A DNA stretch of 58,775 bases, the filler included, from Stramenopiles sp. TOSAG23-2 (taxonomy: Eukaryota): the NCBI GenBank assembly GCA_900128395.1. It is 4 parts of 4 records of this genome, joined end to end, with 100 filler letters (N's around TTAATTAATTAA, not from the genome) between each part and the next. Parts side by side here need not be neighbours in the genome. Positions count along the whole stretch, not along the records: positions 1 to 14,666 come from LT649750.1; 3 more parts are not named here. One strand, 5' to 3'. The translations under genes were made by a program, and so were the position numbers. The first letter of the stretch is position 1. Each line of letters opens with the position of its first letter. The notes beneath the pieces were generated by a model, which worked only from the letters and a program-made list of their open reading frames with translations, was not told where the DNA came from and did no database searches. Positions 613 through 55,109 of the stretch are shown piece by piece.

Positions 613-2485
613 TCATTTGTTGCTTTCCCATCTCCGCAACCCTGACTTCCCAGTCACCGCTAATACACCGCTACTAATTAATAAGCCGATGCCAACATAT
701 TTGGGTAACAGCTGCTTGTAATCTCTTTTCGGTTTTGTTTTTAAAGCCTTCGGCAAATTATTACCAAATAAAAATGATGGAAAATATTGTATTTTGTTCA
801 ACCTAGCACAACTTTCACGATCCATATTATCATAATGATGAGCTAAATTTAATATTTCAAATTGAAATGCAAAAGACATTTTCGTATTTTCTTGGATATA
901 TTTATATGCATTTTTAGCTATCGTCAATTTTGTTTCATTGCTATCATTACTTTCATGATAATAAAATTTCAAATTACGATTTACATTAGTTGTATTGATT
1001 ATATCTAAATCAATATTTTCTTTATTTGTATCAGTTTTTTTATTTATTTCCAATTCATAAATTTCATCAAGTTGTTCTTTTTGATACATGTCGAAATTAA
1101 TAAATTGTGAAAAATAATAAAAGCTATACAATTTATTGAGTGACGTAAACAAGTCTCTTGGTATATATTTTCCAGATTTAAGAAAATCACGTATCGTTTT
1201 ACAGCATTTTCCATATTCTCCATTACTATCATTTTGTTTATTTAGTTGTTTCCGTTGTTGTTGTTGTTGTTTTTGTTTAAATTCTTTATTAATTTTATCT
1301 GTATAAAAACCACCACCTTCATTATAAGATGTGTTGTTTGAAATTGTACAGCTTGTTAATGTCGCTGAACCACCATCACCGATATAAAAACCACCACCAG
1401 AATAAAAATCAGCATTAGAAGAAAAGCCGTTCTTGATCGTCAAATTTGTTAATATCAATTTAGTATCAGAATTCTGAACTACGAATAATTTATGACCAAA
1501 ACAATTGCTTTGACAGCCTGGGGTAGCACCACCATCAATTGCTGGCCGTGTACCATCTACACCAACAATGCCAGTAATTTCCAATGTACCACTATCAACC
1601 TTAACAGTACTTGTTATTTTCACATCATGTAATAGTATATACGTTCCATTTGTTAGATTCTCATTCCATTCACCTATCAAAGATCTACCAATATCATTTC
1701 TAAGTTTTTTTACCTCCAAATCACGCCCCTGATCATTTATAATACTGTTTCGATTACCAAATACAACATTCTTCTCATCCAAATGAAGAACATCGTTTGA
1801 AACACGTTCACCATTTACATTACGTACGTCATTATTTAATTTCAAAATACGTTTAGAATTTACTTCATCAGCAACGTCGTTATGATCATTATATCGTTGG
1901 TAAAAAGTATCTTTCTTCTTTTTAACGTTATTCATCTCTTTACTATTATAATTATCACCATCATCAAAATCTACATCTTCATTCGTAACATGACGATGTA
2001 TCGATTCTTGATTATTCGTATTCTTATTATAATAATTATGCACTTTAACATTATCATCAACATCATTTTCTTCGTCTCCATCTCTAGCTACTATTATCCT
2101 ATCCTTTTCTTTCATTCGTAACATGACGATGTATCGATTCTTGATTATTCGTATTCTTATTATAATAATTATGCACTTTAACATTATCATCAACATCATT
2201 TTCTTCGTCTCCATCTCTAGCTACTATTATCCTATCCTTTTCTTTATAATTATACAACGTACATGTTGGATATTTTTCATGAAACCATTGTGATAACACA
2301 TGATTATTTTGTAAAAATCCATCCATTGTTAAGGATTGTATCATATCGATACGTACATTACAAATCGTATCCATACCAACATTTATATGGATAAATGTTA
2401 TGAAAAGAAAAAGTATAAATATATTTTCTCTCCTCCATGTTGTTTTAATACCTTTATTTCTTAATTTTGCCGTAGTTTTCATCAT
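613..2485 (-). CDS. Putative membrane/secreted protein with a short parallel beta-helix (Pmp-like GGGFY) repeat segment; split by a 133-bp duplication
   Basis: ORFs 2099-2485 and 613-2214 join into one 579-aa frame when one copy of the 1978-2112/2111-2245 duplication is removed. It has an N-terminal hydrophobic segment, LTNLTIKNG...GGGFYIGDGGSATLTSCTISNNTSYNEGGGFY, and a C-terminal hydrophobic segment. Confidence 0.6.
1978..2245. repeat. Exact tandem duplication, period 133 bp (frameshifting)
   Basis: ttcattcgtaacatgacg...atccttttcttt starts at both 1978 and 2111. Confidence 0.95.
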
Positions 2486-3122
2486 TTTTTAATTTTGAAT
2501 AAAAAATTATTTTATTTTTTCTGTAATCGACAATAAACATATCTACAAAGACAAACACAAATACTTTTTTTTTATTCTTGTATATCTCTTGTTATCTGTA
2601 TATATACATAGACCAATATATGTTTATGTATATATTTACATCTATCCTATCTCTTCTCCCATCACCCATCATCTATAATATATTTATTCATTCAATTTCA
2701 TCAATTTTTACGTGCATTTTTTAATTTTTTATATTAAAATTTCAAATATTATTAAGTACAACTAATTAGTATACTCTTACAAAACACCCTATATAATCGA
2801 AGCAAAAAACCCAAACGGGATTTGTAAGATTATTTCACATTTCACCTCTCATCTCTCTTGTCACTTTTTACATTTAAATTTATGTATATATATTTATCAT
2901 CTTGTTTGAACAACATGATAAGAGATGATATACGTACAACAAAGTAAATAAAAACATCCATTCCATCCATTCATTACATACATACACATATTACCAATAA
3001 ACAATTACACCATTACAACACACCATACATATACACAAAAAGAAGAAACCTACGAAAATGTATTTATCATATATATATAATATTTACCAAAACGTATTTT
3101 CACGATACTACAATACCATAGT

Positions 3123-3291
3123 ACCTCTTATAATATCCCCACCAACTACAAAAATCCAAATTGGAAAAACAGGAAAAATGACATTTCTCAACAACTACAT
3201 CGATTCACCTCTTATAATATCCCCACCAACTACAAAAATCCAAATTGGAAAAACAGGAAAAATGACATTTCTCAACAACTACATCGATTCA
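3123..3291. repeat. Exact tandem duplication, period 84 bp
   Basis: acctcttataatatcccc...catcgattca starts at both 3123 and 3207. Confidence 0.95.
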
Positions 3292-4020
3292 TATCAAATA
3301 AATTACATCATTTCACTTAGAAATCATTAACACAACGAAAAAATGTTATCATCAGCATGATATATAATAAGAACATTGTTTTTCGTCATATCGTCACTGC
3401 ACAAAACACAAATGCAATCACTTCAAAGTATGGACTACTGTTTTCATAATCTCACAATTTATAGGTAAATAGCACTATTTCACACAACTCACAAACAGAA
3501 ACAAAACTTCGGATAATTCATCTATATGCATATATACTCCTAAAAACATCTTTATCATCCAAATGAATTTGTCCGGATGGCTTTAAATCTTTTTAATAAT
3601 GATAATAAACGATTGTAGAAATTTATACCACTTGAAATAAACAAAAACATATTTTTTAAGACTATTTTCGACATTATACCCACTACCAAGTATTTTCTAA
3701 CATTTTCTGTCAAATCGTCTCGAAAAAACTTTGTACAAAGTTTATATGTTTTTTCCTCCAAATTCAAAATTCACCATAAAAAAGATATTAATCGATTTCA
3801 ATTGTCATATAAACGTTAGGATATCATTATCACCTATATTAAAATGTATGTGCAAAAAAGTACGACGTATAATAATCTACAACTTTTTATTTTTTGTATT
3901 TTCTAACGTACATGAATTTTGCTTTCGAATGATTTTATCTTGTTAAAATTCCAAAGGTCTAATTTATAAAATTTTAAATATTTTTTTAGAAATATTACAA
4001 ATTGACAAATGGAACTTGTT

Positions 4021-4159
4021 TTCTATTTAAATCTTATGAACTCGTAGTATAACTTTGCATGTCATCTTATACATAAGTAATTGATCGAATTCTATTTAAA
4101 TCTTATGAACTCGTAGTATAACTTTGCATGTCATCTTATACATAAGTAATTGATCGAAT
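4021..4159. repeat. Exact tandem duplication, period 69 bp
   Basis: ttctatttaaatcttatgaac...ttgatcgaat starts at both 4021 and 4090. Confidence 0.95.
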
Positions 4160-4632
4160 ACAATCCATTATATATATTAATGTTTGTTTTATCTGATATA
4201 TTTTTATAATCTGATGTCGCTTTAGTTCTGTCATTATCATTTGGTCTCTATCCTTGTTTTATAAAATTCTATGTTTATAGATAGATAGTCATATTGTGTG
4301 TTATGAAATATTGTTTAGAATTTTAGCAGGGGAATACCATTACGATTAAGATTATACTATCAAAATATAGATATTGTACTTAAAATGGATATTAGAATAC
4401 CAAACTATACACTCGATCACTCGATCCACCATCATAAAAAACATAAAAATCCCCGTCTCTCTTATAGACACAGAGGCCGTCGTCTAATAATTTTACTCCC
4501 ATGATCTCAAAAATATAAGAAGAATGGTTAAAAATAAATTTTTATAATCTCAGCTCCTCTCGCACATCAATATAGTAAACCAGAGTGCAATATGTATATA
4601 TACACTCGTCCCCCCGATACACACACTTGTAT

Positions 4633-4856
4633 TCACTTCTTACCACCATCAAATTCTAAACTTTCCAATGTCGTTGCCCAACTCAACAATTCATTATTAA
4701 AACTACCTAATAATTCCACATCTAAACTTAAACGTTTTAATGTCGTTAAATTTTCATATTCATCTGGTAATGCTTTCAAAAATGTAAATTACCTTCGATA
4801 GTCAATTCCAATTCCGTTGGTAAACCATGTAAACTATTTACATGTAACGATAATGA
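4633..4856 (-). pseudogene. Degenerate leucine-rich-repeat gene fragment
   Basis: Manual translation gives SLSLHVNSLHGLPTEL..., a frameshift, then FLKALPDEYENLTTLKRLSLDVE...ATTLESLEFDGGKK*, fitting the LxxLPxxxxxLxxLxxLxL LRR pattern. No start codon was found. Confidence 0.55.
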
Positions 4857-5027
4857 GTACATAAATACATTATACTCAATAATTTTACCTATCAAAATAA
4901 CAGGATTTTTTATTTGAAAAATTTCACTCATCAAAAAGTCTCAAAAATTTCAAACAAGAAAACAAAAACCGACGCCCCTTTACCTTCCTTGCCGTCTTCT
5001 TGGTACATCAACAAAATCTCACATCCA

Positions 5028-6020
5028 TCACACATCTTTACTACGTTTACTCTTCTTTTCTTTCTTTTTTTTCTTCGTTTTCTTTGTTTGTTTTTTCCTA
5101 TTTGCATCTTTACGTTGTGTATTATCATTATGACGTTTTAATCGTTCCGTTAAATTTCTAGCATTTGTAATGGTATCATGATGTCCAACATATTTATCAC
5201 CAATTTCATTTTCATATTTAATATTTAATTCAATATCATTAATACCATACATTGTATCGTTTTGATATTGTTGTTGTTGTTGTTGATCAAAACGATTTGA
5301 TTTATTTGCATTATTATTACCTCCATCTTTTATTTTCTTATTATTATTTGCTGCTTCTTCACGTCTAGCAGTTAATACACCTTGTTTTACATATTCAATT
5401 TCATCTTTTTCTAAACTTAATAACATTTTTAATGGTGGTCCACCATCAATACCATTATCCCATGCATCTTCACCATACATTTTCCGTCCTTTTTGATCTG
5501 CAGATGATAATATTTCAATTTCACGACTTGTTTGCCTTTCTCTATGTTCTCTACTTGTATTTAAACGTGATGTCAATTGTATTTTTTGTTCACGTGCTGT
5601 ATTTAATTGTGTTTCATATTGATTTAATTGTTTTTTAATACGTCTAACTTTTTTATTTAAATTAGTTTCTTTTTCCTCTGCATTACGTTGTTGTTTGACT
5701 AAACGTGCTTCTTCTGGATCCCATACATGATATTGTTCTTCCCAATCATCATCATCGTCTGTGCTACTATTACTACTATCATCGCTATTATTTTTCCGTT
5801 TTTTACTTTTTTTATCTCTTAATCCAACTGGTAAATAACGTTGTCGTGCAATATCACTTCTACTTCTACGTCTATTCATACAAAATAAACGTATAAAATA
5901 ATTAATAGATGCACAAAAAAATGCAACTGAAAATATAAATACAATAATTAATAATGGTACAAAAAATGGTCCATGTCGATTACCTTCTTTAATTGCATGG
6001 TTGATATGTTTTATCGGCAT
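5028..6020 (-). CDS. Hypothetical single-pass membrane protein with coiled coil and basic C-terminus
   Basis: 330-aa ATG ORF with a TM segment (FFVPLLIIVFIFSVAFFCASINYFI) and a heptad-rich central region. Confidence 0.75.
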   Translation of the reverse strand: MPIKHINHAIKEGNRHGPFFVPLLIIVFIFSVAFFCASINYFIRLFCMNRRRSRSDIARQRYLPVGLRDKKSKKRKNNSDDSSNSSTDDDDDWEEQYHVWDPEEARLVKQQRNAEEKETNLNKKVRRIKKQLNQYETQLNTAREQKIQLTSRLNTSREHRERQTSREIEILSSADQKGRKMYGEDAWDNGIDGGPPLKMLLSLEKDEIEYVKQGVLTARREEAANNNKKIKDGGNNNANKSNRFDQQQQQQYQNDTMYGINDIELNIKYENEIGDKYVGHHDTITNARNLTERLKRHNDNTQRKDANRKKQTKKTKKKKKEKKSKRSKDV

Positions 6021-7782: not shown

Positions 7783-8637
7783 TACGTACCAATGGTCGAC
7801 AACACAATTAGATATCTCTCTGTGATTATATTAATAGATTGTTCGTTCGTTCTATAGTAGCTATCTTCTATCCTTGCGGTGTCATCATCACATGTGTGAT
7901 CACATCTGTGTCTATCTTACACATATACATGTACATATATATATATATGTATGTTTATAATAAAACCATTTACGGGAGATCGAGAAGAAGTGCCGGGCGG
8001 GGGCGGCTGTTACCATATGAATATCATTAGTATCCATTTGTCACACCTTCTATCATTTGCACATTTTTATGAATTTAATGCTGTCTATAATGCATTTTAT
8101 TTATCAATATTTTATTATTTTTTTTTGTATTTATTCCTATATATTTATACTACTAGTATATACACTGAATATGAATATAAAATCGGATATTTATTTTCTT
8201 ATGCCGTAGACCAGAAATAAAAGTTGGATTTTATTTATGCAACTTATGCAAATATGCCACTAATATTTTGTATTTTTTTTTTGATATTCTAATTTACCAT
8301 TCAAGTATAAATTATATAGGTCTTTTCGGAGGATGGATATACTGGGTACATACCATTACATCATGATACATGGATTTATAGCATATTATAAAATAACAAT
8401 TATTATTATTATTAGACTATTTTTACTCGCAATATCACACATCACACACACCATTTACCTCATATCACACACACCACACGTCACGGCATTACATATATAC
8501 ATGCACATAGTCTATGCAAAACGCCGTCGATGTGAAAATTACAAGCTAAAAAGTCAGTATATAAAAATATACGACCGCGTTCATAAAATATAATTACATC
8601 TCTCGTACCAATAAATACCATGGATACTAAAAAGAGC

Positions 8638-11600
8638 CTACAACCTACAATCACCTTTACGACGATCTTGTAACAGTCGTCTTCGTTTATCTCCAGAACT
8701 TTTCACTACGTAATGTGTTCCTGTCAATTCCACATCTTTTGAATACTTGTTCTTATGTATATCTTTCAATGGCTTGACATTATCATGCGTACAACCGTTT
8801 ACTGCTATACATTTACCATAGTCTTTCAAACCATCGCAACACTCATTATCATCAACATATGCTTTTACCTTTATGTAGGAACCAATTAAATAATTTCTAT
8901 TTTTGCAATATGGAAGCTCATCTTGCAAATAACTATTTTCATCCTCTGTATTTAAATGAATTACAGCGACCCATTCTTTCGTTCTTGTGCTATTTGGATC
9001 CATTGCTACTTGTTGTAAAGATATGTCTTCGGCGGTAAAGAGCGGTGCTGCAGGACAGTTTTTATCTTCCACATCAAACCGCAATTTACGTTTCAAATTT
9101 AACATTGTATCTTTATCATATGAAATCTCCTTGTTTAAATAATGAATCGCGATATTTTTAATATCTGTATTTGATAAATCAATATGATTATAACCTTTGC
9201 AAAATTTTTTTTTGTGTTTAATTAACTCTGTTGACGTCCACTTTGAACCAATTTTGCAATGTTGTTCTGCTTTTGGTGTTGTAGGAACAGCTTTTGCTTT
9301 CATGACTTGTTGCATATTATTTATTTTTTCTATACGTTTCTTCTCTGAACGTTTGCGTAGAGATGCCTCCATCGTTTCTACAAATGATGTTAATGTTGCC
9401 TGGCTTGCAATTGAGTGCATGTACAGGCTTTCAATTAGATTGTAAAATTGTGACATGGCATGTTTGTATGGAACAAATAACTCGCATAATTGTGTTTTCT
9501 TTTTGGAATCAGTAGCATCAATAACACGTGGGCCGCATAATGAAATATCTTCAAAAAATGCAGTAACTGCCTTGTTTATTTTCTTCGTCTGGGATACACT
9601 TTTTTTAAGCGATTGCAATAATGCTGTCATACCTTTATGCAAATAACCATTTTGTTTAATCGCATTGGTTACTTCAACATACAAATTATGTTGACTATAA
9701 TCACCACCTTGGGATAAGGCGTATGGTATGATGTCTGTACGATTCACTCGATTAGTGGGATCTTTACAAACTGCTAATGTTTTATCTCTACGTTCTTTAC
9801 AACATATATTTGGCCAAAACGTCTTTGCCTCTTTATCAATGTTTTGTATTTGAAATAAATTATCTAAATCAGATGTAAAAGAACAAAATGATTTTAATAA
9901 TTCATCACGATTTGTATCAATACATGTTGTATCTTCAATTTTTTCAATTTCATTTGATATTTCAATGGCAGGGAAAATAACCGTACCTTTTAAACGTTGT
10001 TTTTCACATGATTTTTTTTCACTTGCATCGTCGTCTGGTTTACGTTCTTTCATGTATTTGTCATGATGTAAACGTATTTGTTCTTTTTGCCATAACCGTG
10101 AGTTTTTGATGGATAAATCGTTGGTTTTTTCTTTTTGTTCCTCTAAAATTTTGAAAATATTTTTAATATCGTTTGCATTGTTACGTTCTGCTAGCTGTGC
10201 TTCTTCATCTAAACATTTTGTACGGTCTTTGCTTGGTGCTAATGGCAATTTACATTGTATACACACTTTATTGATACCTTCTTCGTCGTTAAATGTATCT
10301 TCTGGGCATTTGTTGCATCTTGTTTTTGTTTTGCATATACATTTAACACCATGACTACATTTATATGTTGATTTTGTGTTGGGATTCCAATAATATTTAT
10401 TAAGATCAATCCAATAAAAAATACATCCAGGTGGAGCATACGACAAACTCGTTCGGCCTCCATATCCTCCATTTTTATCAATATTATTCTTTCTATTATA
10501 TTCAGCTGCTAATTCACATTCTGCTTCTGTTGTTATTTTAGATATCCCACTACATTGTGATGCATACCCAGATGTAAATATTTTTCCACTTGGAACACCA
10601 TAACCAGCTTCACATTTAAGTGCATCTTTTTTACTCGTACATGAATCTTCCGAATCTTGTTTACTATTTAAAAACGTATATGGTCTATCATTTGGACATG
10701 GTGTACATGTTGGATTGGTACCACCTTCACTATATGTATTGATTGGGCATTTGATACATGTTTTTGGTTTGCATATACATTTATAACTAGTACTACATTG
10801 TTTTGTTGATTTTGTGTAGCCATTCCAATAATATTTATTATCATAAACATTATAAAAACATCCAGGTGGATAATAATACGACTCACTCAATCGGCCTCCA
10901 AATCCTCCATTTTTATCAATATTATTCTTACTATTATATTCAGCTGCTAATTTACATTCTGCTTCTGTTGTTATTTTAGATAGACCACTACATTGTGATG
11001 CTAAACCAGATGTATACATAGGTGCACTGTACCCTTCCCCAGGTTTACAAGTAACTGCATATTCATCTTTTGTACAAGAATCAATCGAAGTTTGTGGTCG
11101 ATCTAAAAATGTATTCGGTTTATCTTTTGCGCATCGTGTACATTTAACATCATCACCACCTGCACTATAATAACCATTTTCACAACGTACACATTCTTTT
11201 GGTTTCGTAATACCGTCGTTGATAAAACCATGTTCAGGTTCACATTTTATTGTTGGTACAGGTATACATGCATTGATGGATGTTTGTCCCGTTTTAAAAT
11301 TTGTAGTTGGTCTATCTTTTGGACATGCTGTACATGTTGGATTGATACCACCTTCACTATATGTATTGATTGGGCATTTGATACATGTTTTTGTTTTGCA
11401 TATACATTTACCAATAGTACTACATTTTCCTCTTGATTTTGTGATGTCATTAAAATAATATTTATTATAACCACCAGGGGTATAAAAACATCCAGGTGGT
11501 TCATACGACAAACTCCTTCGGCCTCCATATCCTACATTTTTATCAATATTATTCTTACTATTATATTCAGCTGCTAATTTACATTCTGCTTCTGTTATTT

Positions 11601-11742
11601 TAGATATACCACTACATTGTGAACCAGATGTACGAATATCTGTTGGTTGAATAGCATAACCAGCTTCACAAGTTAGATCTTCTTCACCACTAACAATAGA
11701 TATTAGCAATAAACATATTACGAATAAACTTATTTCTTTCAT
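8638..11742 (-). CDS. Secreted Cys-rich repeat protein (three C..I.TEAEC.LAA...PPGC...CIC modules alternating with GCC2/GCC3/ephrin-receptor-like CxxCPxxTY repeats) with coiled coil and unrecognised C-terminal domain
   Basis: 1034-aa ORF with signal peptide MKEISLFVICLLLISIVSG. Repeats CIKCPINTYSEGG (x2), CVRCENGYYS and CNKCPEDTFN are present. It ends KRRRLLQDRRKGDCRL. Confidence 0.9.
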   Translation of the reverse strand: MKEISLFVICLLLISIVSGEEDLTCEAGYAIQPTDIRTSGSQCSGISKITEAECKLAAEYNSKNNIDKNVGYGGRRSLSYEPPGCFYTPGGYNKYYFNDITKSRGKCSTIGKCICKTKTCIKCPINTYSEGGINPTCTACPKDRPTTNFKTGQTSINACIPVPTIKCEPEHGFINDGITKPKECVRCENGYYSAGGDDVKCTRCAKDKPNTFLDRPQTSIDSCTKDEYAVTCKPGEGYSAPMYTSGLASQCSGLSKITTEAECKLAAEYNSKNNIDKNGGFGGRLSESYYYPPGCFYNVYDNKYYWNGYTKSTKQCSTSYKCICKPKTCIKCPINTYSEGGTNPTCTPCPNDRPYTFLNSKQDSEDSCTSKKDALKCEAGYGVPSGKIFTSGYASQCSGISKITTEAECELAAEYNRKNNIDKNGGYGGRTSLSYAPPGCIFYWIDLNKYYWNPNTKSTYKCSHGVKCICKTKTRCNKCPEDTFNDEEGINKVCIQCKLPLAPSKDRTKCLDEEAQLAERNNANDIKNIFKILEEQKEKTNDLSIKNSRLWQKEQIRLHHDKYMKERKPDDDASEKKSCEKQRLKGTVIFPAIEISNEIEKIEDTTCIDTNRDELLKSFCSFTSDLDNLFQIQNIDKEAKTFWPNICCKERRDKTLAVCKDPTNRVNRTDIIPYALSQGGDYSQHNLYVEVTNAIKQNGYLHKGMTALLQSLKKSVSQTKKINKAVTAFFEDISLCGPRVIDATDSKKKTQLCELFVPYKHAMSQFYNLIESLYMHSIASQATLTSFVETMEASLRKRSEKKRIEKINNMQQVMKAKAVPTTPKAEQHCKIGSKWTSTELIKHKKKFCKGYNHIDLSNTDIKNIAIHYLNKEISYDKDTMLNLKRKLRFDVEDKNCPAAPLFTAEDISLQQVAMDPNSTRTKEWVAVIHLNTEDENSYLQDELPYCKNRNYLIGSYIKVKAYVDDNECCDGLKDYGKCIAVNGCTHDNVKPLKDIHKNKYSKDVELTGTHYVVKSSGDKRRRLLQDRRKGDCRL

Positions 11743-14666: not shown

Positions 14667-14766
14667 NNNNNNNNNNNNNNNNNNNNNNNNNNNNNNNNNN
14701 NNNNNNNNNNTTAATTAATTAANNNNNNNNNNNNNNNNNNNNNNNNNNNNNNNNNNNNNNNNNNNN
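14667..14766. other. Artificial contig linker (44 N + TTAATTAATTAA + 44 N)
   Basis: 100-nt spacer with stop codons in all six frames; identical structure at 29417 and 44099. Confidence 0.97.
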
Positions 14767-29416: not shown

Positions 29417-29516
29417 NNNNNNNNNNNNNNNNNNNNNNNNNNNNNNNNNNNNNNNNNNNNTTAATTAATTAANNNNNNNNNNNNNNNNNNNNNNNNNNNN
29501 NNNNNNNNNNNNNNNN
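29417..29516. other. Artificial contig linker
   Basis: 44 N + TTAATTAATTAA + 44 N. Confidence 0.97.
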
Positions 29517-35639: not shown

Positions 35640-36657
35640 CGTCTGCCCCCGGTGTTAGATACCAAAGGGAAAAAAGAAAACAAACAAAACACAATAATTT
35701 TAGAGAAAAAAAAAAAGCAATTGAAAATATATAAAAATATTTCTTCATATATATATTGCAATTTTATAAAGTATGTCAATGGCTGCCTAGTTATTACTTT
35801 ATTAAAAACAAAAAAAAATAATACTTGCTTGGTTCTCATAGTGTTTTGATCGGAGATATAAATATCGGGTTGATAATGATCGAAAAATAAACATACCAAA
35901 CATGCATCGAAGTATGGAAATTGAAGCAGGCGTTGTTCTCTAAGATATCTAAAGTAATCATATTGGTGATTATTTTTTTTTTTATTTTAAATTATTTTTT
36001 GAATTTGGCGTTTTATTTCATGCATGATAATGTAAGAAGTACCATGTCCTATTTGTATTATTCAACCTCCTTAAAACTAAGGTTTTTGACGGAAAAGTTT
36101 TAAAGGTTGCACTCGAGGGTATTGTAAGTGAAGTAGGATACCTATCGATAAAGTGCCATTTATGAAAATGATAGGCTTTTTTCGAAATTTAAGTACAAAG
36201 AATAGTATTGTTAAGGAGGAGCCTTGGACACACAATGTATTTTTTTAGTTGTTTATTTAGTAGTTGGATGGTAATATAATAAGCAAGTAATTATAATGGT
36301 GGTTGATTTTACCTGTTTAGCATGGAGATAGGCTTAAAAGGAGTGATAATATGTATTAGCAGAAGGATAGCAGGTAAAATAGAACCCTATTTTATACATG
36401 AATATCAGAAATATTAGAGGGCCACTTTTTTATGCTTTGTGATATTTTTTTGGCACAGGATCTACTGCTGTGTTGTTTCCTACAAGAAATTTAATTGCCT
36501 TAAATACTTCCAACCACCATTTCTTCAATGTTTTGAAACAGATGTGGCTTTCCTTTTTCTTGCAAGTTGTTGTTTGAACAGATTTAATTGCTTGTAGTTT
36601 CTTTTGTAATGTGGTGTACATTTTGGCGAACATAATACCAACATTTACAAGTTTCCA

Positions 36658-36990
36658 TTGCCCAGTCAATACAGAGTTACTCATCAAGTTAGAGGTGTTA
36701 TGTCACGTTCTACATCTTGGGAACCCAAGGGATGTTCTATATATACACAAACACACGGCAACAATGCCAATGTGTTTTTTAATTCAGATACAACAACGAC
36801 GGAATCTTGTTCGAACTGGACACCATGTATATGTGCATCGACAGAACCTGATCGTCATATTAGTGGTTTACAAACTGTTACTGTTGGCAAGTGTATAAAG
36901 TACATAGACAATAAAGAGGATTGTGAATTAGCCGCTAAATTTCTCTTTAATGTGCAAGATGCAACTGCTTATGATGGTACCGGCAATTAA
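36658..36990 (+). pseudogene. Isolated fragment of the same Cys-repeat module family as 8638-11742
   Basis: SWEPKGCSIY...VFFNS......CSNWTPCIC followed by KC..YIDNKEDCELAAK. There is no ATG start or signal peptide, and the frame stops mid-module. Confidence 0.65.
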
Positions 36991-37328: not shown

Positions 37329-40300
37329 ATGGATCAAGAATTATCAGATTTATTGGATAAATTGAAACGGGCGAACAAAGGTAAAAAGAAACGAAAGAAT
37401 AAAAAGGTAGTATCAGGAAATAATGATGAAGATGATGTAGGAAATAAGTATAATAATAATAATAACTCAGAAGAAGAAGGTAGTGCGTTTCTAAAAGCAA
37501 AAGCAAGAGTTGAGCAAGATAGGATTGAAAAAATGTTTCCAACTATTTTAACTGGGTCATGGCTATATAAATATCCTAGTGAAGGTAGCAAAGCATCTGC
37601 TGCGTCAAGTGTGGAAACCTATCCTAGAAAATGTCTGTATTGTTCTACATGGTTATCAAGTAAAACTTCATATGAACAACATTTATTAAAAGCTCATAGT
37701 AATAAAAGTAATAATAATATCTACAATAATAATAATAACAACAATACGTCGTCAACGGGTACATCCAATAAAAATGGAAACAATAACAAGAATAATGAAC
37801 ATGTCCAACAATTAGGTATTCCACGAAAATATTTTTTCAAATTAGATACGAAAAATAATCAAATCAATTGGTATTTTAATGAAATAAAATACAAAAAGGA
37901 TGAAAAAAATAGTGATCCACAAATTAAAATAGCTGGTAGTTTAGCATTAGATTCTGTGATTAAAATATCTGTTGGCGTCGCTACGCCTGGTGTAGAAATG
38001 CCAAAACCAGAATTTATAAATGATTACTTTACCTTACAAGCAAAAGGTCGTTATGTAGTATTGCGTGCAAGCAATGCACCAAATGCACATTCGTGGGTCC
38101 GTGAATTACGTGTTGCAGTGTTCGAATTAGGACAACCACCACCTGGTGATGATGCATCTGAAACATTATTTTCATTAATTAATAATAAAGGTAATAATTT
38201 AAAAAATGATGAAAGTGTAACTGGAATGGCGATTGAAAGACTTGTATCGAATAATCCAGATATGTTAAATATCCCAAATGAAGATGGTGATACCCCGTTA
38301 ATTGTTGCAGTTCGATTGAATTTATCACATGTAGTACAGATTTTATTATCATTAGGTGCTAATTTAAGTTTATTAGGTAAACGGAATAATAGTGTCTTGC
38401 ATGTTGCCTGTAAAAATGCAGGAATGATGATGAAAAAAACGGAAATGAATAATATGAATCATAAAGATGATGCAGTGGATGATGATAATCATAAAAACAT
38501 AGATGGTATTGAAACATATAAGATTGCAATGAAAATTATAGAAATATTGCTTGATATACCATTTGTAGAGAAAATATTAGATGTAAGACGTGAAGGTGGT
38601 GCAACATGTGTGCATGATATAGCTAGTGCTGGTAATGTACATATATTGCAATTATTATTGGAGAAAAATGCAAATCCATATAGTTGCGATGATTACGACC
38701 GTACTGCATTGCATATTGCATGTTCTCAACAAGAAACTGCATATAATACACAAGTAGTATCATTATTATGTGAATTAATTGAAGATACGTTAGATTGGCA
38801 AGATTTTGAAGGAAATACGGCATTGCATTTAGCAGCAAGGATTGGAAATTTTAATGCGGTGCAACAATTATTACAAACTGCTGCAAATCCATCTATTAAA
38901 AACAAAGCTGGTGCAACACCATATGATATATCCCTTGCAAGCAATTACGAAGAAATTGCTAGTATTATTGAAGAGTACAATATAATCGATGAACAAAGCA
39001 ATGCTGAAGAGGATGATGAAGCATATGAAGAGGAAGATGATGACATATTAGAAAATGCAAAAGGAAATAAACAACATTATAATGATATGTATTATAATAA
39101 TAATAACAATATGATGATGACGATGGAACAACAATCACATCAATATAATAATCAAATGTATAATGTTGAAAATACAAGTCCTTACAATAATAATATCAAT
39201 AATAATTCTAATAATAATGAAAAAGGTCCTGCAAATACATTATCATATATACATCCACACGCATCATCATCATATTATCATCATTCACATCAATATCATC
39301 AACAACAACGACAACAAGCGTGGGTACATCAAGTAAATATTAATAATAACAAGAATTTATCTGACACATCTGCCTCTGGATATTCGATGTCGGAAAGGGA
39401 ATGGGGAGAAGCAATAACTGAAGATGGTCGTCGATATTATTTCAATACTGTAACAGGACATACACAATGGGAAGTACCAATCGGTTGGCAACAACAACTT
39501 GGAGGAATGCAACAACAACAACAACAACAACCATCAACAGCAATTATAAATAATAGTGCTAACAATAATAATAATAGTAACAACAGCAATAACAATATCT
39601 CCCCAAATCATATACAACAACAACCAATGCAAATGCAGCAACCTCGAGTACGCTATCAACAACAAACTATAAATACTACTGTAAATGTTGGAAATAATAT
39701 TAATGATTTGAAGACGATGAGTACGAATAATCGACAAATGGCAAATCGCCTTTCACACCCTTCGCCACCACCTGCAATCAATACATCCCCACAACAACAA
39801 CAACCATTAAGACCATCACAACAACAACATCATCACCAGCAACAACATCGATCACCATCACCAATACAACATTCTCCACAACAACAACAACGAGTCCAAA
39901 ATAACACTAATAATCATGCAAACATGGGTGGTTATTCACCGCAATCGACTTCATCCAATTCGTCTTATTTGACATCGCCACGAGGAACACCAAATGCATC
40001 CCCTCATGTATCACCTCAACAGCAAGGTCGACAATTTCGATCAAGATATGATCAGCGAATGATGAGTAATTTAGTACGTGAAGGTGGTTTATTTGCACAG
40101 CAGCAACAACAGCAACGTTTGGCACAACAACAAAGTAGTCGTCGCGGCGGCGGTGGTGGTATTATTAATCATAATAACATGATGTCACAACCACCTTTAA
40201 TAAATCAACAATATCAACAACAACAACAAACACCATCACCAATCGTTAATAATAATAATAATAACAACAACAATGTCCCTACTACTAGTAGTAATAATAA

Positions 40301-40487
40301 TAATCGGGGAGCTTTTGATCATAATAAAGCACGGTTTATGAAAGCTGCTATGCAAAATTTAGCACATGTTATATCTCCAATGAATTTAGACAACCCAGCA
40401 TTAAATAAACGTTTAATTGAAGAAAGACGAAGGGCTAGAGAAGAACGAAGGAAGAAAATACGAAAATCAAGAAGAAATAGAAGGTGA
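37329..40487 (+). CDS. PH (with inserted C2H2 zinc finger) - ankyrin repeats - WW domain protein with Q/N-rich tail
   Basis: TGSWLYKY...KYFFKL...INWY...LRASNAPNAHSWVRELR (PH); CLYC-x12-H-x4-H; DGDTPLIVA, DRTALHIA and GNTALHLAA (ankyrin); WGEAITEDGRRYYFNTVTGHTQWEVP (WW). Confidence 0.92.
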   Translation: MDQELSDLLDKLKRANKGKKKRKNKKVVSGNNDEDDVGNKYNNNNNSEEEGSAFLKAKARVEQDRIEKMFPTILTGSWLYKYPSEGSKASAASSVETYPRKCLYCSTWLSSKTSYEQHLLKAHSNKSNNNIYNNNNNNNTSSTGTSNKNGNNNKNNEHVQQLGIPRKYFFKLDTKNNQINWYFNEIKYKKDEKNSDPQIKIAGSLALDSVIKISVGVATPGVEMPKPEFINDYFTLQAKGRYVVLRASNAPNAHSWVRELRVAVFELGQPPPGDDASETLFSLINNKGNNLKNDESVTGMAIERLVSNNPDMLNIPNEDGDTPLIVAVRLNLSHVVQILLSLGANLSLLGKRNNSVLHVACKNAGMMMKKTEMNNMNHKDDAVDDDNHKNIDGIETYKIAMKIIEILLDIPFVEKILDVRREGGATCVHDIASAGNVHILQLLLEKNANPYSCDDYDRTALHIACSQQETAYNTQVVSLLCELIEDTLDWQDFEGNTALHLAARIGNFNAVQQLLQTAANPSIKNKAGATPYDISLASNYEEIASIIEEYNIIDEQSNAEEDDEAYEEEDDDILENAKGNKQHYNDMYYNNNNNMMMTMEQQSHQYNNQMYNVENTSPYNNNINNNSNNNEKGPANTLSYIHPHASSSYYHHSHQYHQQQRQQAWVHQVNINNNKNLSDTSASGYSMSEREWGEAITEDGRRYYFNTVTGHTQWEVPIGWQQQLGGMQQQQQQQPSTAIINNSANNNNNSNNSNNNISPNHIQQQPMQMQQPRVRYQQQTINTTVNVGNNINDLKTMSTNNRQMANRLSHPSPPPAINTSPQQQQPLRPSQQQHHHQQQHRSPSPIQHSPQQQQRVQNNTNNHANMGGYSPQSTSSNSSYLTSPRGTPNASPHVSPQQQGRQFRSRYDQRMMSNLVREGGLFAQQQQQQRLAQQQSSRRGGGGGIINHNNMMSQPPLINQQYQQQQQTPSPIVNNNNNNNNNVPTTSSNNNNRGAFDHNKARFMKAAMQNLAHVISPMNLDNPALNKRLIEERRRAREERRKKIRKSRRNRR

Positions 40488-44098: not shown

Positions 44099-44198
44099 NN
44101 NNNNNNNNNNNNNNNNNNNNNNNNNNNNNNNNNNNNNNNNNNTTAATTAATTAANNNNNNNNNNNNNNNNNNNNNNNNNNNNNNNNNNNNNNNNNNNN
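44099..44198. other. Artificial contig linker
   Basis: 44 N + TTAATTAATTAA + 44 N. Confidence 0.97.
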
Positions 44199-49574: not shown

Positions 49575-49622
49575 NNNNNNNNNNNNNNNNNNNNNNNNNN
49601 NNNNNNNNNNNNNNNNNNNNNN
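49575..49622. other. Within-scaffold gap (48 N)
   Basis: Run of N without linker sequence. Confidence 0.95.
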
Positions 49623-52052: not shown

Positions 52053-55000
52053 TTATAATCCAGTTGGGCGATGAAATCGCCCATTATCACCTATTGTTAA
52101 TCCATCGCTTTTTGATTTATTGCTATCATCACCATTAATTTTCATCCCTTCGACATTGTTCGCCAATGTATTAACTGCATTATTACTATTGCTATCTTCA
52201 ACATATCCGCCACTGCTATTTGTTTTGCTCAGCAAGAGGTTAGGTAATGCATCTAATGTAACTTCTGTTTGTTCATTTGCTTGTACATCTTTTAGTTGGC
52301 AAACATTTCTGGCAACTTCATCTTCGCCAAGTACAACCATGTATGGTATACCTTTCTCAAGCGCCATTTGTAATTGTCGCCTAAATGGTACATCAGTCTT
52401 GTAAACAAATTCAGCAGATACGCCAACTTTCCACAATGTTGAACATACTTTCATACGTTCCTTAATGAATGAGCCACCAGTACATGCAACTAATACATCC
52501 ACTGGTTTAGAACCTAACGTATTTAAAGCACGAGCTTTTCTTTCCATAATTGCAAAAACTCTTTCAATACCAATACTAACGCCAACACATGGTGTTTTCT
52601 TTCCTGAAAACATACCAACTAAATTGTCATACCTACCTCCAGCAGCAATAGAACCAACCCTTTCGCCTTTTTCAGTTATGACAGCTTCGTAAATTAATCC
52701 AGTGTAATAATCTAAACCACGTGCTAGACTTAAATCAAACGATATGTTGCCTAAGACACCACAGGCGTCTAAGTATTCAAATAAAATTTTCAATTCATCC
52801 ATGGCTTTTTTAGCTCTTGGATGTGTATTGAAACCCGTCCATTCAGTAGCAATCAATTTTGCATGAAGATCCAACGGATTGTCCATAGTACGAACTTCGC
52901 TGTCTTCATTTACATATCTGCCAATGCGATCAGCTACTACTGGATCCAAACCTTTTACCTCGATCATTTCGCAACGTACGGCACTCCAAGGTTCTTTGTC
53001 TAGCTTATCAACGGCACTGCATATAGGACGAAATTTTTCTTCCGGCACACCACAAATATCAAGCATCGCATCTAATAATACACGATGATTTAATTTAATA
53101 GCAAAATCACCAACAGGCAATGCACGTAAAATCTCAATCGCTACTGATAAAACCTCGGTTTCCGGTATCATAGAATCGTAATCTCCAGCAACATCATAAT
53201 CGCATTGGTAAAATTCACGAAATCGACCTTTTGCAATATTCGGATTATCACGCCTGTAAACTTTTCCAATGTGAAAGCGTTTTATATTACCGACGCTGTG
53301 TAATGCTAAAAAACGTGCGAATGGGACGGTTAAATCATATCGCAGTGCCAATAGCTCACCACCTTGGTCTGCCAATTCATATATTAATTTTGAATCTTCC
53401 CCATATTTACCAGTCAACGTTTCTTTTAATTCAAACACTGGCGTATCGATTTCAACGGCACCATGACGTCTAAAGACACCACGAATAATTTCAAATGCTT
53501 CTTGCCTTACTGCCATTTGATCTGGTTCAAAATCTCTAGCACCTTTTGCTATCTTAGGTACGCGCTGAGCACCACCACTACCAATTCGTTCTAATGTAAT
53601 GCGCAATGATGAATTTGTGATCAATCCTTTTTTTTGCGGATGAATTGTTGTGCTGATAAAATCACCATCATCCGTACCGGCTGCTTTTTCATCTTTTAAA
53701 AGTTTTAAAAACCAATTTGTCCCACTACCTAAACCAAGGCCACCAGCTTGTTTACTTTTATTTTTATTCTTTGCTGCCTTTTTTGCAGCTTTTGCCGCTT
53801 TTTTTGCTGCCTTTGCTGCACGTTTAGCTGCTGCTTTGTCATCCTCTGGTGGTTTTTGTGCATTATTATTATCTGTATTAGCTGCTGCTTTGGCTGCCAT
53901 TTTTTTTTCATATTCTTCTTTTTTACGTTTTGCTTCTTCTTCTTTTGCTTTTGCTTTTACTATTATTTCCTCCTCACGCTTTAAAAGAATATCCATTCCA
54001 AGCTTACACTCTTGGCATAAATTTTCAATCCACTCATTTGTTGTTACGGACGTTGGTGTCAACATTGTTTTTTGTACTTGTGGTGCCAATGGAATATTTT
54101 GCATTTGATTTGCACGCTGTTGAAATTGTTGAAGTATATTCAATCGATCTTGCGATGCTTTGTGCAAATCATATAAATGTACTTTTAATGTCTGGCTAAG
54201 TGGCTTTACTGAATTAGAGGTATATTGAGCTCTAGATCCAAACGATGGTGCCCCATTTAGCTCTGTGCGCAAAGTTCGTGATATTGTAGGTAATAATAGC
54301 CTGCTTGGGCCATGAAGCTGTGGTGTTAATTCAATTGCATCGAAAGATCGTTTTTTCATTTTTTTCTTCTTTTTCCCACCACCACTATCAGATATTAAAT
54401 TGCGTGAATTTAACAACAAGGTTCTTAAATTTTCTGCAGATTCAACACAGCCACGATGTGGACGACAAACGTATTCATTTTCGTCAAAACATGAAGCGGA
54501 ATGCTGTACAACTTCACAACTAAATGCAGCGACTAAATCGGACACATCTAATAAATTTTGTGTGACAAAAGCTTCTAAACATACAATTGCACTTTCCATT
54601 ACTTGATCACGAGTAAATGCAAATGTTTCAAATCCTGTTAATTCACCCAGTGCTTGTACATTAGCAGATGAAAATGTTTTTCCATCAAAAACTTGAATTT
54701 TTCCACTTGTTTCGTCTCCTTTTGAAAGAAATTCCATCAATGTGGAAACATAAGTTGAGCTGCGTGGTAATTTTGGTATAATATCTTCGTTCAATAATTG
54801 GGTCAATAATTCGACTAGTTCTGGTCTAACGTCAGACCTACCAGCCATAAACCATACAAGATGAAAAAGTATCGTCGCACGAGCCTGTTCCTTCGTAGTA
54901 GCTATTACAAAGCTTCTCTCCTCCTCTGCATCGTCGTTATTGTCCTCCACGTTATGTGCCTCAGGAGCCTTCTGTGATTTTGCTAAACCAGCTGATTTTT

Positions 55001-55109
55001 TAATTCCTGCACTTGCTGCTGTATCTAATTGTACACCTGCCTGAAGACATGAGACTTTGTAAAACTCTTCTAACGTTACCGTACGATTTCCTACTAATAC
55101 AGATTCCAT
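52053..55109 (-). CDS. HARS: Cytosolic histidyl-tRNA synthetase with N-terminal histidine-ammonia-lyase-like domain
   Basis: KGARDF, IDTPVFELKETL, LRYDLTVPFAR, YRRDNP..KGRFREFYQCD, LARGLDYYTG, GVSIGIER and the anticodon-binding domain are present. The N-terminus carries GRSDVRPEL, RPHRG and PQLHG. Confidence 0.96.
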   Translation of the reverse strand: MESVLVGNRTVTLEEFYKVSCLQAGVQLDTAASAGIKKSAGLAKSQKAPEAHNVEDNNDDAEEERSFVIATTKEQARATILFHLVWFMAGRSDVRPELVELLTQLLNEDIIPKLPRSSTYVSTLMEFLSKGDETSGKIQVFDGKTFSSANVQALGELTGFETFAFTRDQVMESAIVCLEAFVTQNLLDVSDLVAAFSCEVVQHSASCFDENEYVCRPHRGCVESAENLRTLLLNSRNLISDSGGGKKKKKMKKRSFDAIELTPQLHGPSRLLLPTISRTLRTELNGAPSFGSRAQYTSNSVKPLSQTLKVHLYDLHKASQDRLNILQQFQQRANQMQNIPLAPQVQKTMLTPTSVTTNEWIENLCQECKLGMDILLKREEEIIVKAKAKEEEAKRKKEEYEKKMAAKAAANTDNNNAQKPPEDDKAAAKRAAKAAKKAAKAAKKAAKNKNKSKQAGGLGLGSGTNWFLKLLKDEKAAGTDDGDFISTTIHPQKKGLITNSSLRITLERIGSGGAQRVPKIAKGARDFEPDQMAVRQEAFEIIRGVFRRHGAVEIDTPVFELKETLTGKYGEDSKLIYELADQGGELLALRYDLTVPFARFLALHSVGNIKRFHIGKVYRRDNPNIAKGRFREFYQCDYDVAGDYDSMIPETEVLSVAIEILRALPVGDFAIKLNHRVLLDAMLDICGVPEEKFRPICSAVDKLDKEPWSAVRCEMIEVKGLDPVVADRIGRYVNEDSEVRTMDNPLDLHAKLIATEWTGFNTHPRAKKAMDELKILFEYLDACGVLGNISFDLSLARGLDYYTGLIYEAVITEKGERVGSIAAGGRYDNLVGMFSGKKTPCVGVSIGIERVFAIMERKARALNTLGSKPVDVLVACTGGSFIKERMKVCSTLWKVGVSAEFVYKTDVPFRRQLQMALEKGIPYMVVLGEDEVARNVCQLKDVQANEQTEVTLDALPNLLLSKTNSSGGYVEDSNSNNAVNTLANNVEGMKINGDDSNKSKSDGLTIGDNGRFHRPTGL

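Follow-up and report, generated by a model that had tools for sequence, protein, structure and literature searches.

The open reading frame (ORF) P0001 occupies positions 8638-11742 on the minus strand of a 58,775-nt stretch of DNA from Stramenopiles sp. TOSAG23-2 (GenBank assembly GCA_900128395.1; hereafter the window), and encodes a protein of 1034 aa in which three copies of a Cys-rich module combine a scaffold that is nearly invariant at the level of individual codons with hypervariable loops. The frame is complete and intron-less, and its product begins with a signal-like leader, continues with the three modules, which alternate with ephrin-receptor-like Cys-rich repeats, and ends in about 500 aa of conserved C-terminal sequence; among 5.8 billion proteins searched, 27 homologues of the same build were recovered. 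We regard it as probable that such modules have been turned over and exchanged among old paralogous genes under strong diversifying selection on about 30 loop codons, resulting in a germline repertoire of distinct, probably ligand-binding modules.

The three copies lie inside this single ORF on the minus strand, as a preliminary description of the same DNA had placed them, and their full limits are 11389-11670 (copy 1, aa 25-118), 10762-11049 (copy 2, aa 232-327) and 10324-10614 (copy 3, aa 377-473), with copies 1 and 3 scoring 168.6 and 186.7 bits, respectively, against a hidden Markov model (HMM) of the module, in addition to being covered by the codon alignment. This alignment reproduces the invariant scaffold codons reported at the outset (gga ggc cga; cca cct gga tgt; aat aaa tat tat; aca aaa tca; aaa tgt ata tgc), together with the whole-codon indels between copies. 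The variable triplets agg/ttg/acg, gac/ggc/ccc, atc/tac/aac, att/agt/ggt and ggt/tat/gtt were recovered as well, whereas tat/gat/ctt hinges on how the loop is aligned, and the statement that a whole module carries only two synonymous changes has to be amended, since more of them (ggt/ggg, att/ata) are found in the N-terminal arm, beyond the range from GG to CIC.

The strength of the codon pattern was assessed on HMM columns 19-94 without gaps, the null being independent draws from the codon usage of the window in 200,000 simulations. An identical codon is used in 50 of the 51 columns in which all three copies share the same degenerate amino acid, as opposed to 16.6 expected, and the simulated maximum was 31, with none of the 200,000 simulations reaching 50. 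Even in the variable columns the third base tends to be kept, being the same in all three copies in 18 of 24 (chance 0.11 per column, binomial p = 7e-13). In Nei-Gojobori comparisons of the three pairs of sibling copies, the proportions of synonymous (pS) and non-synonymous (pN) differences were 0.10-0.11 and 0.18-0.19 over all columns, 0.15-0.22 and 0.44-0.50 in loop columns, and 0.04-0.12 and 0 in scaffold columns; overall, 31 transitions and 111 transversions were counted between the copies. The nearest counterparts of the window's modules are in other genes, at up to 88.5% nucleotide identity; their own siblings, at 82.6-83.9%, rank only 5th to 18th of 51, and therefore the three copies are not simple recent intragenic duplicates.

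The same pattern extends to the entire family. An HMM built from the three modules of the window detected 52 modules in 28 proteins; a scan of metagenome contigs provided 29 loci with DNA, and a six-frame HMM search of these loci plus the window yielded 64 module matches, at 1 to 5 per gene. The codon alignment comprised 52 non-redundant, near full-length modules over 96 match columns, 49 of them from 28 metagenome loci and three from the window. Position-specific codon counts, for which only the 49 modules from other loci were used, show that Lys-42 is encoded by aag in 42 of 43 cases and the remaining Lys columns by aaa, that Cys-93 is tgc in 47 of 49 and the remaining Cys columns tgt, and that Gly-53, Arg-54 and Ser-58 are fixed for ggc (34/36), cga (27/29) and tcg (23/23), respectively. 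Likewise, Asp-77 is gac in 19 of 22 modules, as opposed to gat at Asp-46, and Asn-78 is aac in 22 of 23, as opposed to aat at Asn columns 40, 43, 44, 48 and 76.

The C-terminal domain of P0001 (8641-10134, minus strand; aa 537-1034), which is conserved in the family and of unassigned fold, served as an internal neutral-rate control. At conserved residues, pairs of sequences disagree in codon with a probability of 0.05-0.08 for the module and of 0.355 for the C-terminal domain of the same genes. Pairwise pS has a median of 0.205 in the module (1288 pairs from different genes) vs 0.596 in the C-terminal domain (120 pairs from 16 genes, 473 columns), and median pN is 0.281 vs 0.253; the modules thus look young at silent sites, yet replacement sites in their loops are saturated. 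For the most variable columns, the nucleotide diversities of codon positions 1, 2 and 3 are 0.66, 0.65 and 0.46 in the module, compared with 0.62, 0.55 and 0.63 in the C-terminal domain. The closest pair of genes, L007 and L011, has a C-terminal pS of 0.35 and a module pS of 0.03. Codon mismatch increases outwards from the module (0.05-0.08) to the adjacent ephrin-like repeat, in which codon heterozygosity is 0.158 (49 repeats, 16 conserved columns), and further to the proximal (0.19-0.37) and distal (0.36-0.59) blocks of the C-terminal domain. Silent sites of the C-terminal domain are near saturation, and the genes are therefore old.

Not every module follows the rule. In 51 canonical modules the consensus codon is found at 78-100% of the columns that carry the consensus residue, whereas eight divergent modules residing in the same genes have it at 58-75%, close to the 56-63% predicted from codon usage. 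The agreement in codons thus belongs to one clade of modules and not to the fold. The background level of codon agreement in the divergent modules and the saturation of the C-terminal domain together support the view that canonical modules form a young or homogenised clade that has been exchanged among old genes.

The loops present the opposite picture. Loops 1 and 2 are distinct in all 49 canonical modules examined, only 6 of 1176 module pairs have two of the five loops in common, and no pair shares more; in composition, the loops abound in Ser, Asn, Gly, Lys, Tyr and Asp. We estimated the ratio of non-synonymous to synonymous rates (omega) by maximum likelihood under the GY94 model for the 49 canonical modules on a fixed FastTree topology. 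Omega was 6.18 in the loops (30 columns; twice the log-likelihood difference, 2dlnL, from omega = 1 was 140), 1.00 in an intermediate partition of 26 columns and 0.27 in the scaffold (40 columns), and for the whole module of 96 columns, without any choice of columns, it was still 1.29 (2dlnL = 10.0 vs omega = 1). In the C-terminal domain (16 genes, 473 columns) it was 0.16. A crude parsimony count pointed in the same direction, with 1.99 non-synonymous per synonymous change per site in the loops and 0.46 in the scaffold. When sequences with the same residue are compared, hypervariable columns show a synonymous mismatch of 0.098, barely above the 0.070 of the scaffold, so that the excess of change in the loops is specifically non-synonymous. 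The preliminary description had postulated very strong diversifying selection and had called for per-site dN/dS and a breakdown by codon position: the former agrees with omega of 6.2 in the loops and 1.29 in the module as a whole, and in the latter, as given above, module diversity is lower at position 3 than at positions 1 and 2.

Exchange between modules is revealed by four-gamete mosaics of multi-nucleotide haplotypes. All four combinations are present between the alternatives aca-gat-att-cgt and gga-aag-ata-ttt (TDIR/GKIF, columns 10-13) and the alternatives gaa-gca and tgg-caa (EA/WQ, columns 30-31), and a similar four-gamete configuration involves the two-codon indel at columns 17-18. 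Module pairs from the same gene are no closer to each other than pairs from different genes (pS 0.201 vs 0.205). Exchange is further supported by the variable number of modules per gene (1 to 5), by the truncated module in L016 and by the closeness of the window's modules to those of other genes. Gene conversion or recombination between modules, also suggested initially, is thus borne out by the mosaics and by a synonymous divergence about 5-fold below that of the C-terminal domain of the same genes.

Two cases deserve separate mention. At L016:2072-2119, a truncated module has its N-terminal arm (CKAGEG..PTDIRASG) joined directly to an ephrin-like repeat, in an arrangement that looks like a deletion by unequal exchange. 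In loci L001 (1-693) and L003 (1830-2513), which belong to different contig-name groups, the upstream flanks are 97.7% identical, identity drops to 78-85% towards and inside the family gene, and the loops of the first modules are quite different; this may be an exchange breakpoint or hotspot.

Under the explanation that we prefer, unequal crossing-over or short-tract gene conversion would duplicate, delete and swap canonical modules within and between paralogous genes, and module DNA would consequently have a far more recent common ancestry than the rest of the gene. This recent shared ancestry would hold the framework codons, and even the third bases in the loops, nearly identical, and strong diversifying selection would rapidly fix amino acid-changing substitutions and in-frame indels in the loops, so that every module would acquire a unique surface.

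Several observations weigh against this explanation. The longest run of identical codons is 31, as compared with 28 after column shuffling (means 9.0 and 7.4), which is a marginal excess; none of the module pairs has a long identical tract extending across loops, so that no recent conversion or duplication event was caught, and none exceeds 88.5% nucleotide identity. Codon mismatch is 0.113 within assemblies and 0.095 between them: this equality would be neutral if the assemblies represent one species, and if they come from different species it would disfavour homogenisation within genomes and favour constraint. Some conserved blocks between loops span only 1-7 codons, a length at which conversion could not homogenise them separately, and the model therefore needs turnover of whole modules followed by very fast change in the loops. 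As to the estimates of selection, the division into loops and scaffold was set by amino acid variability, which inflates omega in the loops, and codon models assume a single tree despite recombination.

Some of these points are what one would expect if canonical modules were ancient and were never exchanged, their synonymous sites being held by purifying selection at the nucleotide level, for the sake of mRNA structure, translation kinetics during oxidative folding or an overlapping signal, with the loops left free or pushed to change. The similar mismatch within and between assemblies and the lack of an excess of long shared tracts are in its favour, as are the weak positive correlation between module pS and C-terminal pS (r = 0.26-0.33) and the retention of third bases even within hypervariable codons. 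Nevertheless, the eight divergent modules stand at background codon agreement in the very same genes, so that the fold itself does not require these codons, and a synonymous constraint intrinsic to the domain is unlikely. Furthermore, codon conservation is lost by degrees across the flanking repeat and the proximal part of the C-terminal domain, as recombination tracts predict, mosaics of multi-nucleotide haplotypes do exist, and no function is known for a constraint of this kind. Overall, we consider ancient modules under silent-site constraint an unlikely source of the pattern.

Active rewriting of loop codons requires separate consideration. Diversity-generating retroelements (DGRs) of bacteria, archaea and phages yield NNC/NNT-type hypervariable codons on an invariant scaffold that presents a binding surface, and variable codons of this type on an invariant scaffold are seen here as well. 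However, our case concerns germline paralogues of a eukaryote, many adenines are invariant, with A as the consensus in 50 of the 118 near-invariant nucleotide columns, and substitutions are not specific to adenine: whichever copy is taken as a template, only 12-16 of 45-49 differences fall on A, although about 39% of all bases are A. The 58.8-kb window has 28 ORFs of at least 150 aa, and Pfam scans of 25 of these revealed no RVT family; the remaining three ORFs are antisense and nested in longer ones. In 230,263 bases there was no non-coding copy of the module that could act as a template repeat: 186 of 189 blastn high-scoring segment pairs (HSPs) lie inside in-frame modules, and all 64 module matches in the 230 kb are in frame within long ORFs. 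A DGR was rejected on these three grounds (adenine spectrum, reverse transcriptase and template), in agreement with the preliminary description, which had not supported a classical DGR either.

Cassette systems provide another comparison. In Borrelia vlsE/vls and Neisseria pilE/pilS, invariant framework DNA is interleaved with short variable segments, and mosaics form by short-tract recombination. Framework, variable segments and mosaics occur here too, but silent promoter-less cassettes were not seen in the 230 kb, in which module matches are within long ORFs and 22 genes have leaders of their own, and the loops, being distinct in 49 of 49 modules, are not drawn from a shared set of cassettes.

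This leaves the possibility, raised at the outset, of an undescribed mechanism for which the canonical modules would be substrates, and which would rewrite chosen loop codons by a programmed process (retroelement-like, deaminase- or polymerase-based, or template-directed), using the invariant flanking nucleotides of the framework as recognition sites or homology anchors. There is some room for it, because no two modules exceed the 88.5% identity ceiling, every loop is unique and third bases are spared: change is confined to positions 1-2 of about 24-30 codons, next to a conserved core that is nucleotide-invariant, as expected of a recognition site. Proposals of a mutator, cited in PMC3823881, were once prompted by a similar pattern in conotoxins. 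Yet synonymous change in the loops is hardly elevated, although a mutator would be expected to strike third positions too, the adenine bias, reverse transcriptase and template are missing as described, and the differences are between germline paralogues, with a signal-like leader on every gene whose 5′ end is present. Targeted diversification, accordingly, found no support, and we deem it improbable to a high degree. If true, codon rewriting would make the family a protist counterpart of programmed receptor diversification, going beyond selection on ordinary mutations.

Chance, codon bias or the collapse of repeats during assembly hardly offers a credible account of the pattern. The AT-richness and biased codon usage of the genome, the origin of the loci in short-read metagenome or single-cell type assemblies and the heaping up of contigs on conserved blocks would speak for such an artefact, but codon usage yields about one-third of the identical columns observed, the conserved codons are position-dependent in a way that goes beyond codon bias (tgc/tgt, aag/aaa, ggc/gga/ggt, tcg/tct/tca/agt), the pattern recurs in loci of six contig-name groups plus the window, and repeat collapse cannot erase synonymous differences yet spare unique loops a few bases away.

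We also examined the distribution and likely structure of the module. In a profile search of 1.84 billion representative proteins, 446 had matches with E <= 0.001 and 102 with E <= 1e-10; up to 18 copies of the module, beside ephrin-like, EGF or FG-GAP repeats, are present in some of them, and more distant module-bearing proteins also match PF07699 above its curated cutoff. Judging from these profile matches, the module appears to be a widespread extracellular domain that has so far escaped annotation, and it had no match to any Pfam family even at E <= 1. The spacers, on the other hand, do correspond to the ephrin-receptor-like/TNFR-like repeats of PF07699 (Ephrin_rec_like), which matches them in three stretches with 46 bits (E 4.7e-12), thus passing the curated gathering cutoff of 23.1. 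No relative of the family was found in a collection of viral contigs, leaving an origin from giant viruses unsupported, and literature searches in an open-access library returned no paper on this family.

The AlphaFold2 model of module 2, built from a 26-sequence alignment (mean pLDDT 80.3), depicts a small alpha/beta domain with a helix at residues 29-41 and strands at 50-54, 63-67, 72-76 and 89-95. The canonical module of about 95 aa is thus predicted to be a small disulfide-rich alpha/beta domain with seven invariant Cys, one long helix and a beta-sheet. Mapped on the secondary structure, the variable positions, which number about 30 per canonical module, fall in the N-terminal arm, which is modelled with low confidence, and in the three inter-strand loops (residues 54-60, 67-71 and 77-89); we infer that these loops may form a ligand-binding surface. 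A Foldseek search of the Protein Data Bank (PDB) with this model gave nothing at E <= 0.001. In a wide VIA-align search nine chains had Z >= 2, the best being MGAT5 (Z 3.3), with matches to the aggrecan G1 Link region (Z 2.5, rmsd 3.2, 58 aligned) and a C-type lectin (Z 2.1); no PAN/Apple entry was among these nine chains, nor was there a Pfam match to it. A profile search of PDB sequences returned solely AMA1 chimeras, at E 0.73-0.87. Going by the model, no solved fold appears to match the module convincingly. The model of the C-terminal domain was unusable (pLDDT 49.5), and a search of the ESM Atlas with this domain returned no usable match.

The rest of P0001 is organised as follows, all on the minus strand. 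The N-terminal 24 aa (11671-11742), MKEISLFVICLLLISIVSGEEDLT, are hydrophobic and resemble a signal peptide; similar leaders occur in 22 genes, namely those with the 5′ end present, with a codon heterozygosity of 0.28 over 8 columns. Between modules 1 and 2 (11050-11388; aa 119-231) lie CxxC-rich ephrin-receptor-like/TNFR-like repeats of repeat family D4, and module 2 is followed by an ephrin-receptor-like repeat (10615-10761; aa 328-376), with the best Pfam stretch at aa 327-360. The C-terminal region finishes in RRRLLQDRRKGDCRL, with a polybasic RRRLLQ motif and a Cys close to the terminus. Most of the family proteins inspected likewise end in RRR(R)LLQ plus another 5-12 residues, of which the last or one of the last is Cys (here at 8638-8700), and in P0017 and P0025 the motif is doubled, each time after a separate domain block; this suggests a dibasic processing or sorting site. 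Similarity between the window and L011 continues for about 340 nt beyond the stop codon (8300-8637 vs L011:4602-4951), in a single blastn HSP of 74.9% identity that also covers the C-terminal region, and no similarity to any paralogue was found in upstream non-coding DNA. Loci L008 and L009 are two ends of one 28-kb contig, with two copies of a family gene in opposite orientation that are 99.8-100% identical over 2-3 kb.

The window has a GC content of about 31% and few introns, and its genes of eukaryotic type, as identified by Pfam, include a polycystin channel, WD40, histidyl-tRNA synthetase, tyrosinase, AGC-type kinase, V-ATPase subunit D, RabGAP and GH18 chitinase. Contigs from seawater metagenome run X2 match the unique 5′ end of the P0001 gene and its upstream flank with zero differences. 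This gene content and the seawater contigs support a eukaryotic microbe as the host, and the matches to seawater runs make the organism marine, going by the run labels. In poly-A metatranscriptome runs X3 and X5, pieces identical to the window were found, including 189 nt (9569-9757) inside the C-terminal domain; the gene or a near-identical copy is therefore present in RNA libraries, in which DNA carry-over is possible. The read data consist of short collapsed Logan contigs that pile up on conserved blocks; parts without cover are no sign of absence, and the shares of 0.19-0.32 in the remaining runs probably reflect conserved blocks of the family. In the small DNA run X1, summed word depth is 1500-5700 on conserved blocks (9777-10204 and module cores) and 9-29 on the unique parts of the gene, which is compatible with very many copies sharing identical 31-mers and is not to be read as a copy number.

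Elsewhere in the window, a distant partial copy of the second half of the module (HMM 24.6 bits) is found on the plus strand at 36610-36987, with the anchors ...GC..., FFN and C..CIC kept. It is in an open frame of 126 aa just upstream of an ankyrin/WW-domain ORF (37329-40487), and could represent either an upstream exon or a small gene of its own; the family relative P0028 likewise pairs modules with a WW domain. A 1018-aa ORF at 52053-55109 on the minus strand has an N-terminal part matching Lyase_aromatic (histidine/phenylalanine ammonia-lyase-like, aa 72-287) and, in addition, the complete core and the anticodon-binding domain of a histidyl-tRNA synthetase, in what appears from its domain content to be an unusual fusion of two enzyme families. 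Runs of N between ORFs occur as pairs of 44 bases placed 12 bases apart (14667-14766, 29417-29516, 44099-44198) and as one run of 48 bases (49575-49622), and are presumably masked stretches.

Among described phenomena, the nearest is that of conotoxins, the likeness being one of evolutionary mode, as far as the analogy goes, and not of family membership. In conotoxin scaffolds, position-specific codon conservation stands beside hypervariable loops, and PMC3823881 discusses a mutator as opposed to retained ancestral codons combined with selection, citing Conticello et al. 2000 and 2001 in this debate. Conotoxin and other venom-peptide superfamilies have, as the present family does, position-specific codons for the disulfide scaffold, hypervariable and positively selected loops between Cys residues, and conserved leaders, but here codon identity spans all scaffold residues and not Cys alone. 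Moreover, conotoxins are short signal-pro-mature venom peptides of animals, while here a domain of about 95 aa is repeated one to five times in proteins of about 700-1400 aa from a unicellular eukaryote. Unlike conotoxins, the present family also has an internal control, as a C-terminal pS of 0.60 indicates old genes in which youth or homogenisation is limited to the modules. The selection signature, in which loop omega of about 6 ranks among the stronger ones for diversifying selection, adjoins a control in the same genes and can thus be separated from the age of the family. The family also offers a clean test case for the conotoxin question of mutator vs selection.

The family appears to be a large group of secreted, modular, Cys-rich proteins in an AT-rich, intron-poor marine protist. 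It brings to light an extracellular domain which has neither a Pfam model nor a convincing match among solved folds, and which one lineage of uncultured marine protists has apparently turned into a germline repertoire of hypervariable modules. As a natural scaffold with about 30 tolerant positions, the module could be of interest for binder engineering. For the organism itself, we infer that the repertoire may consist of recognition modules directed at prey, bacteria, viruses or mating and self partners, and the family is thus a candidate for recognition of prey, symbionts, viruses or mates by heterotrophic or mixotrophic protists.

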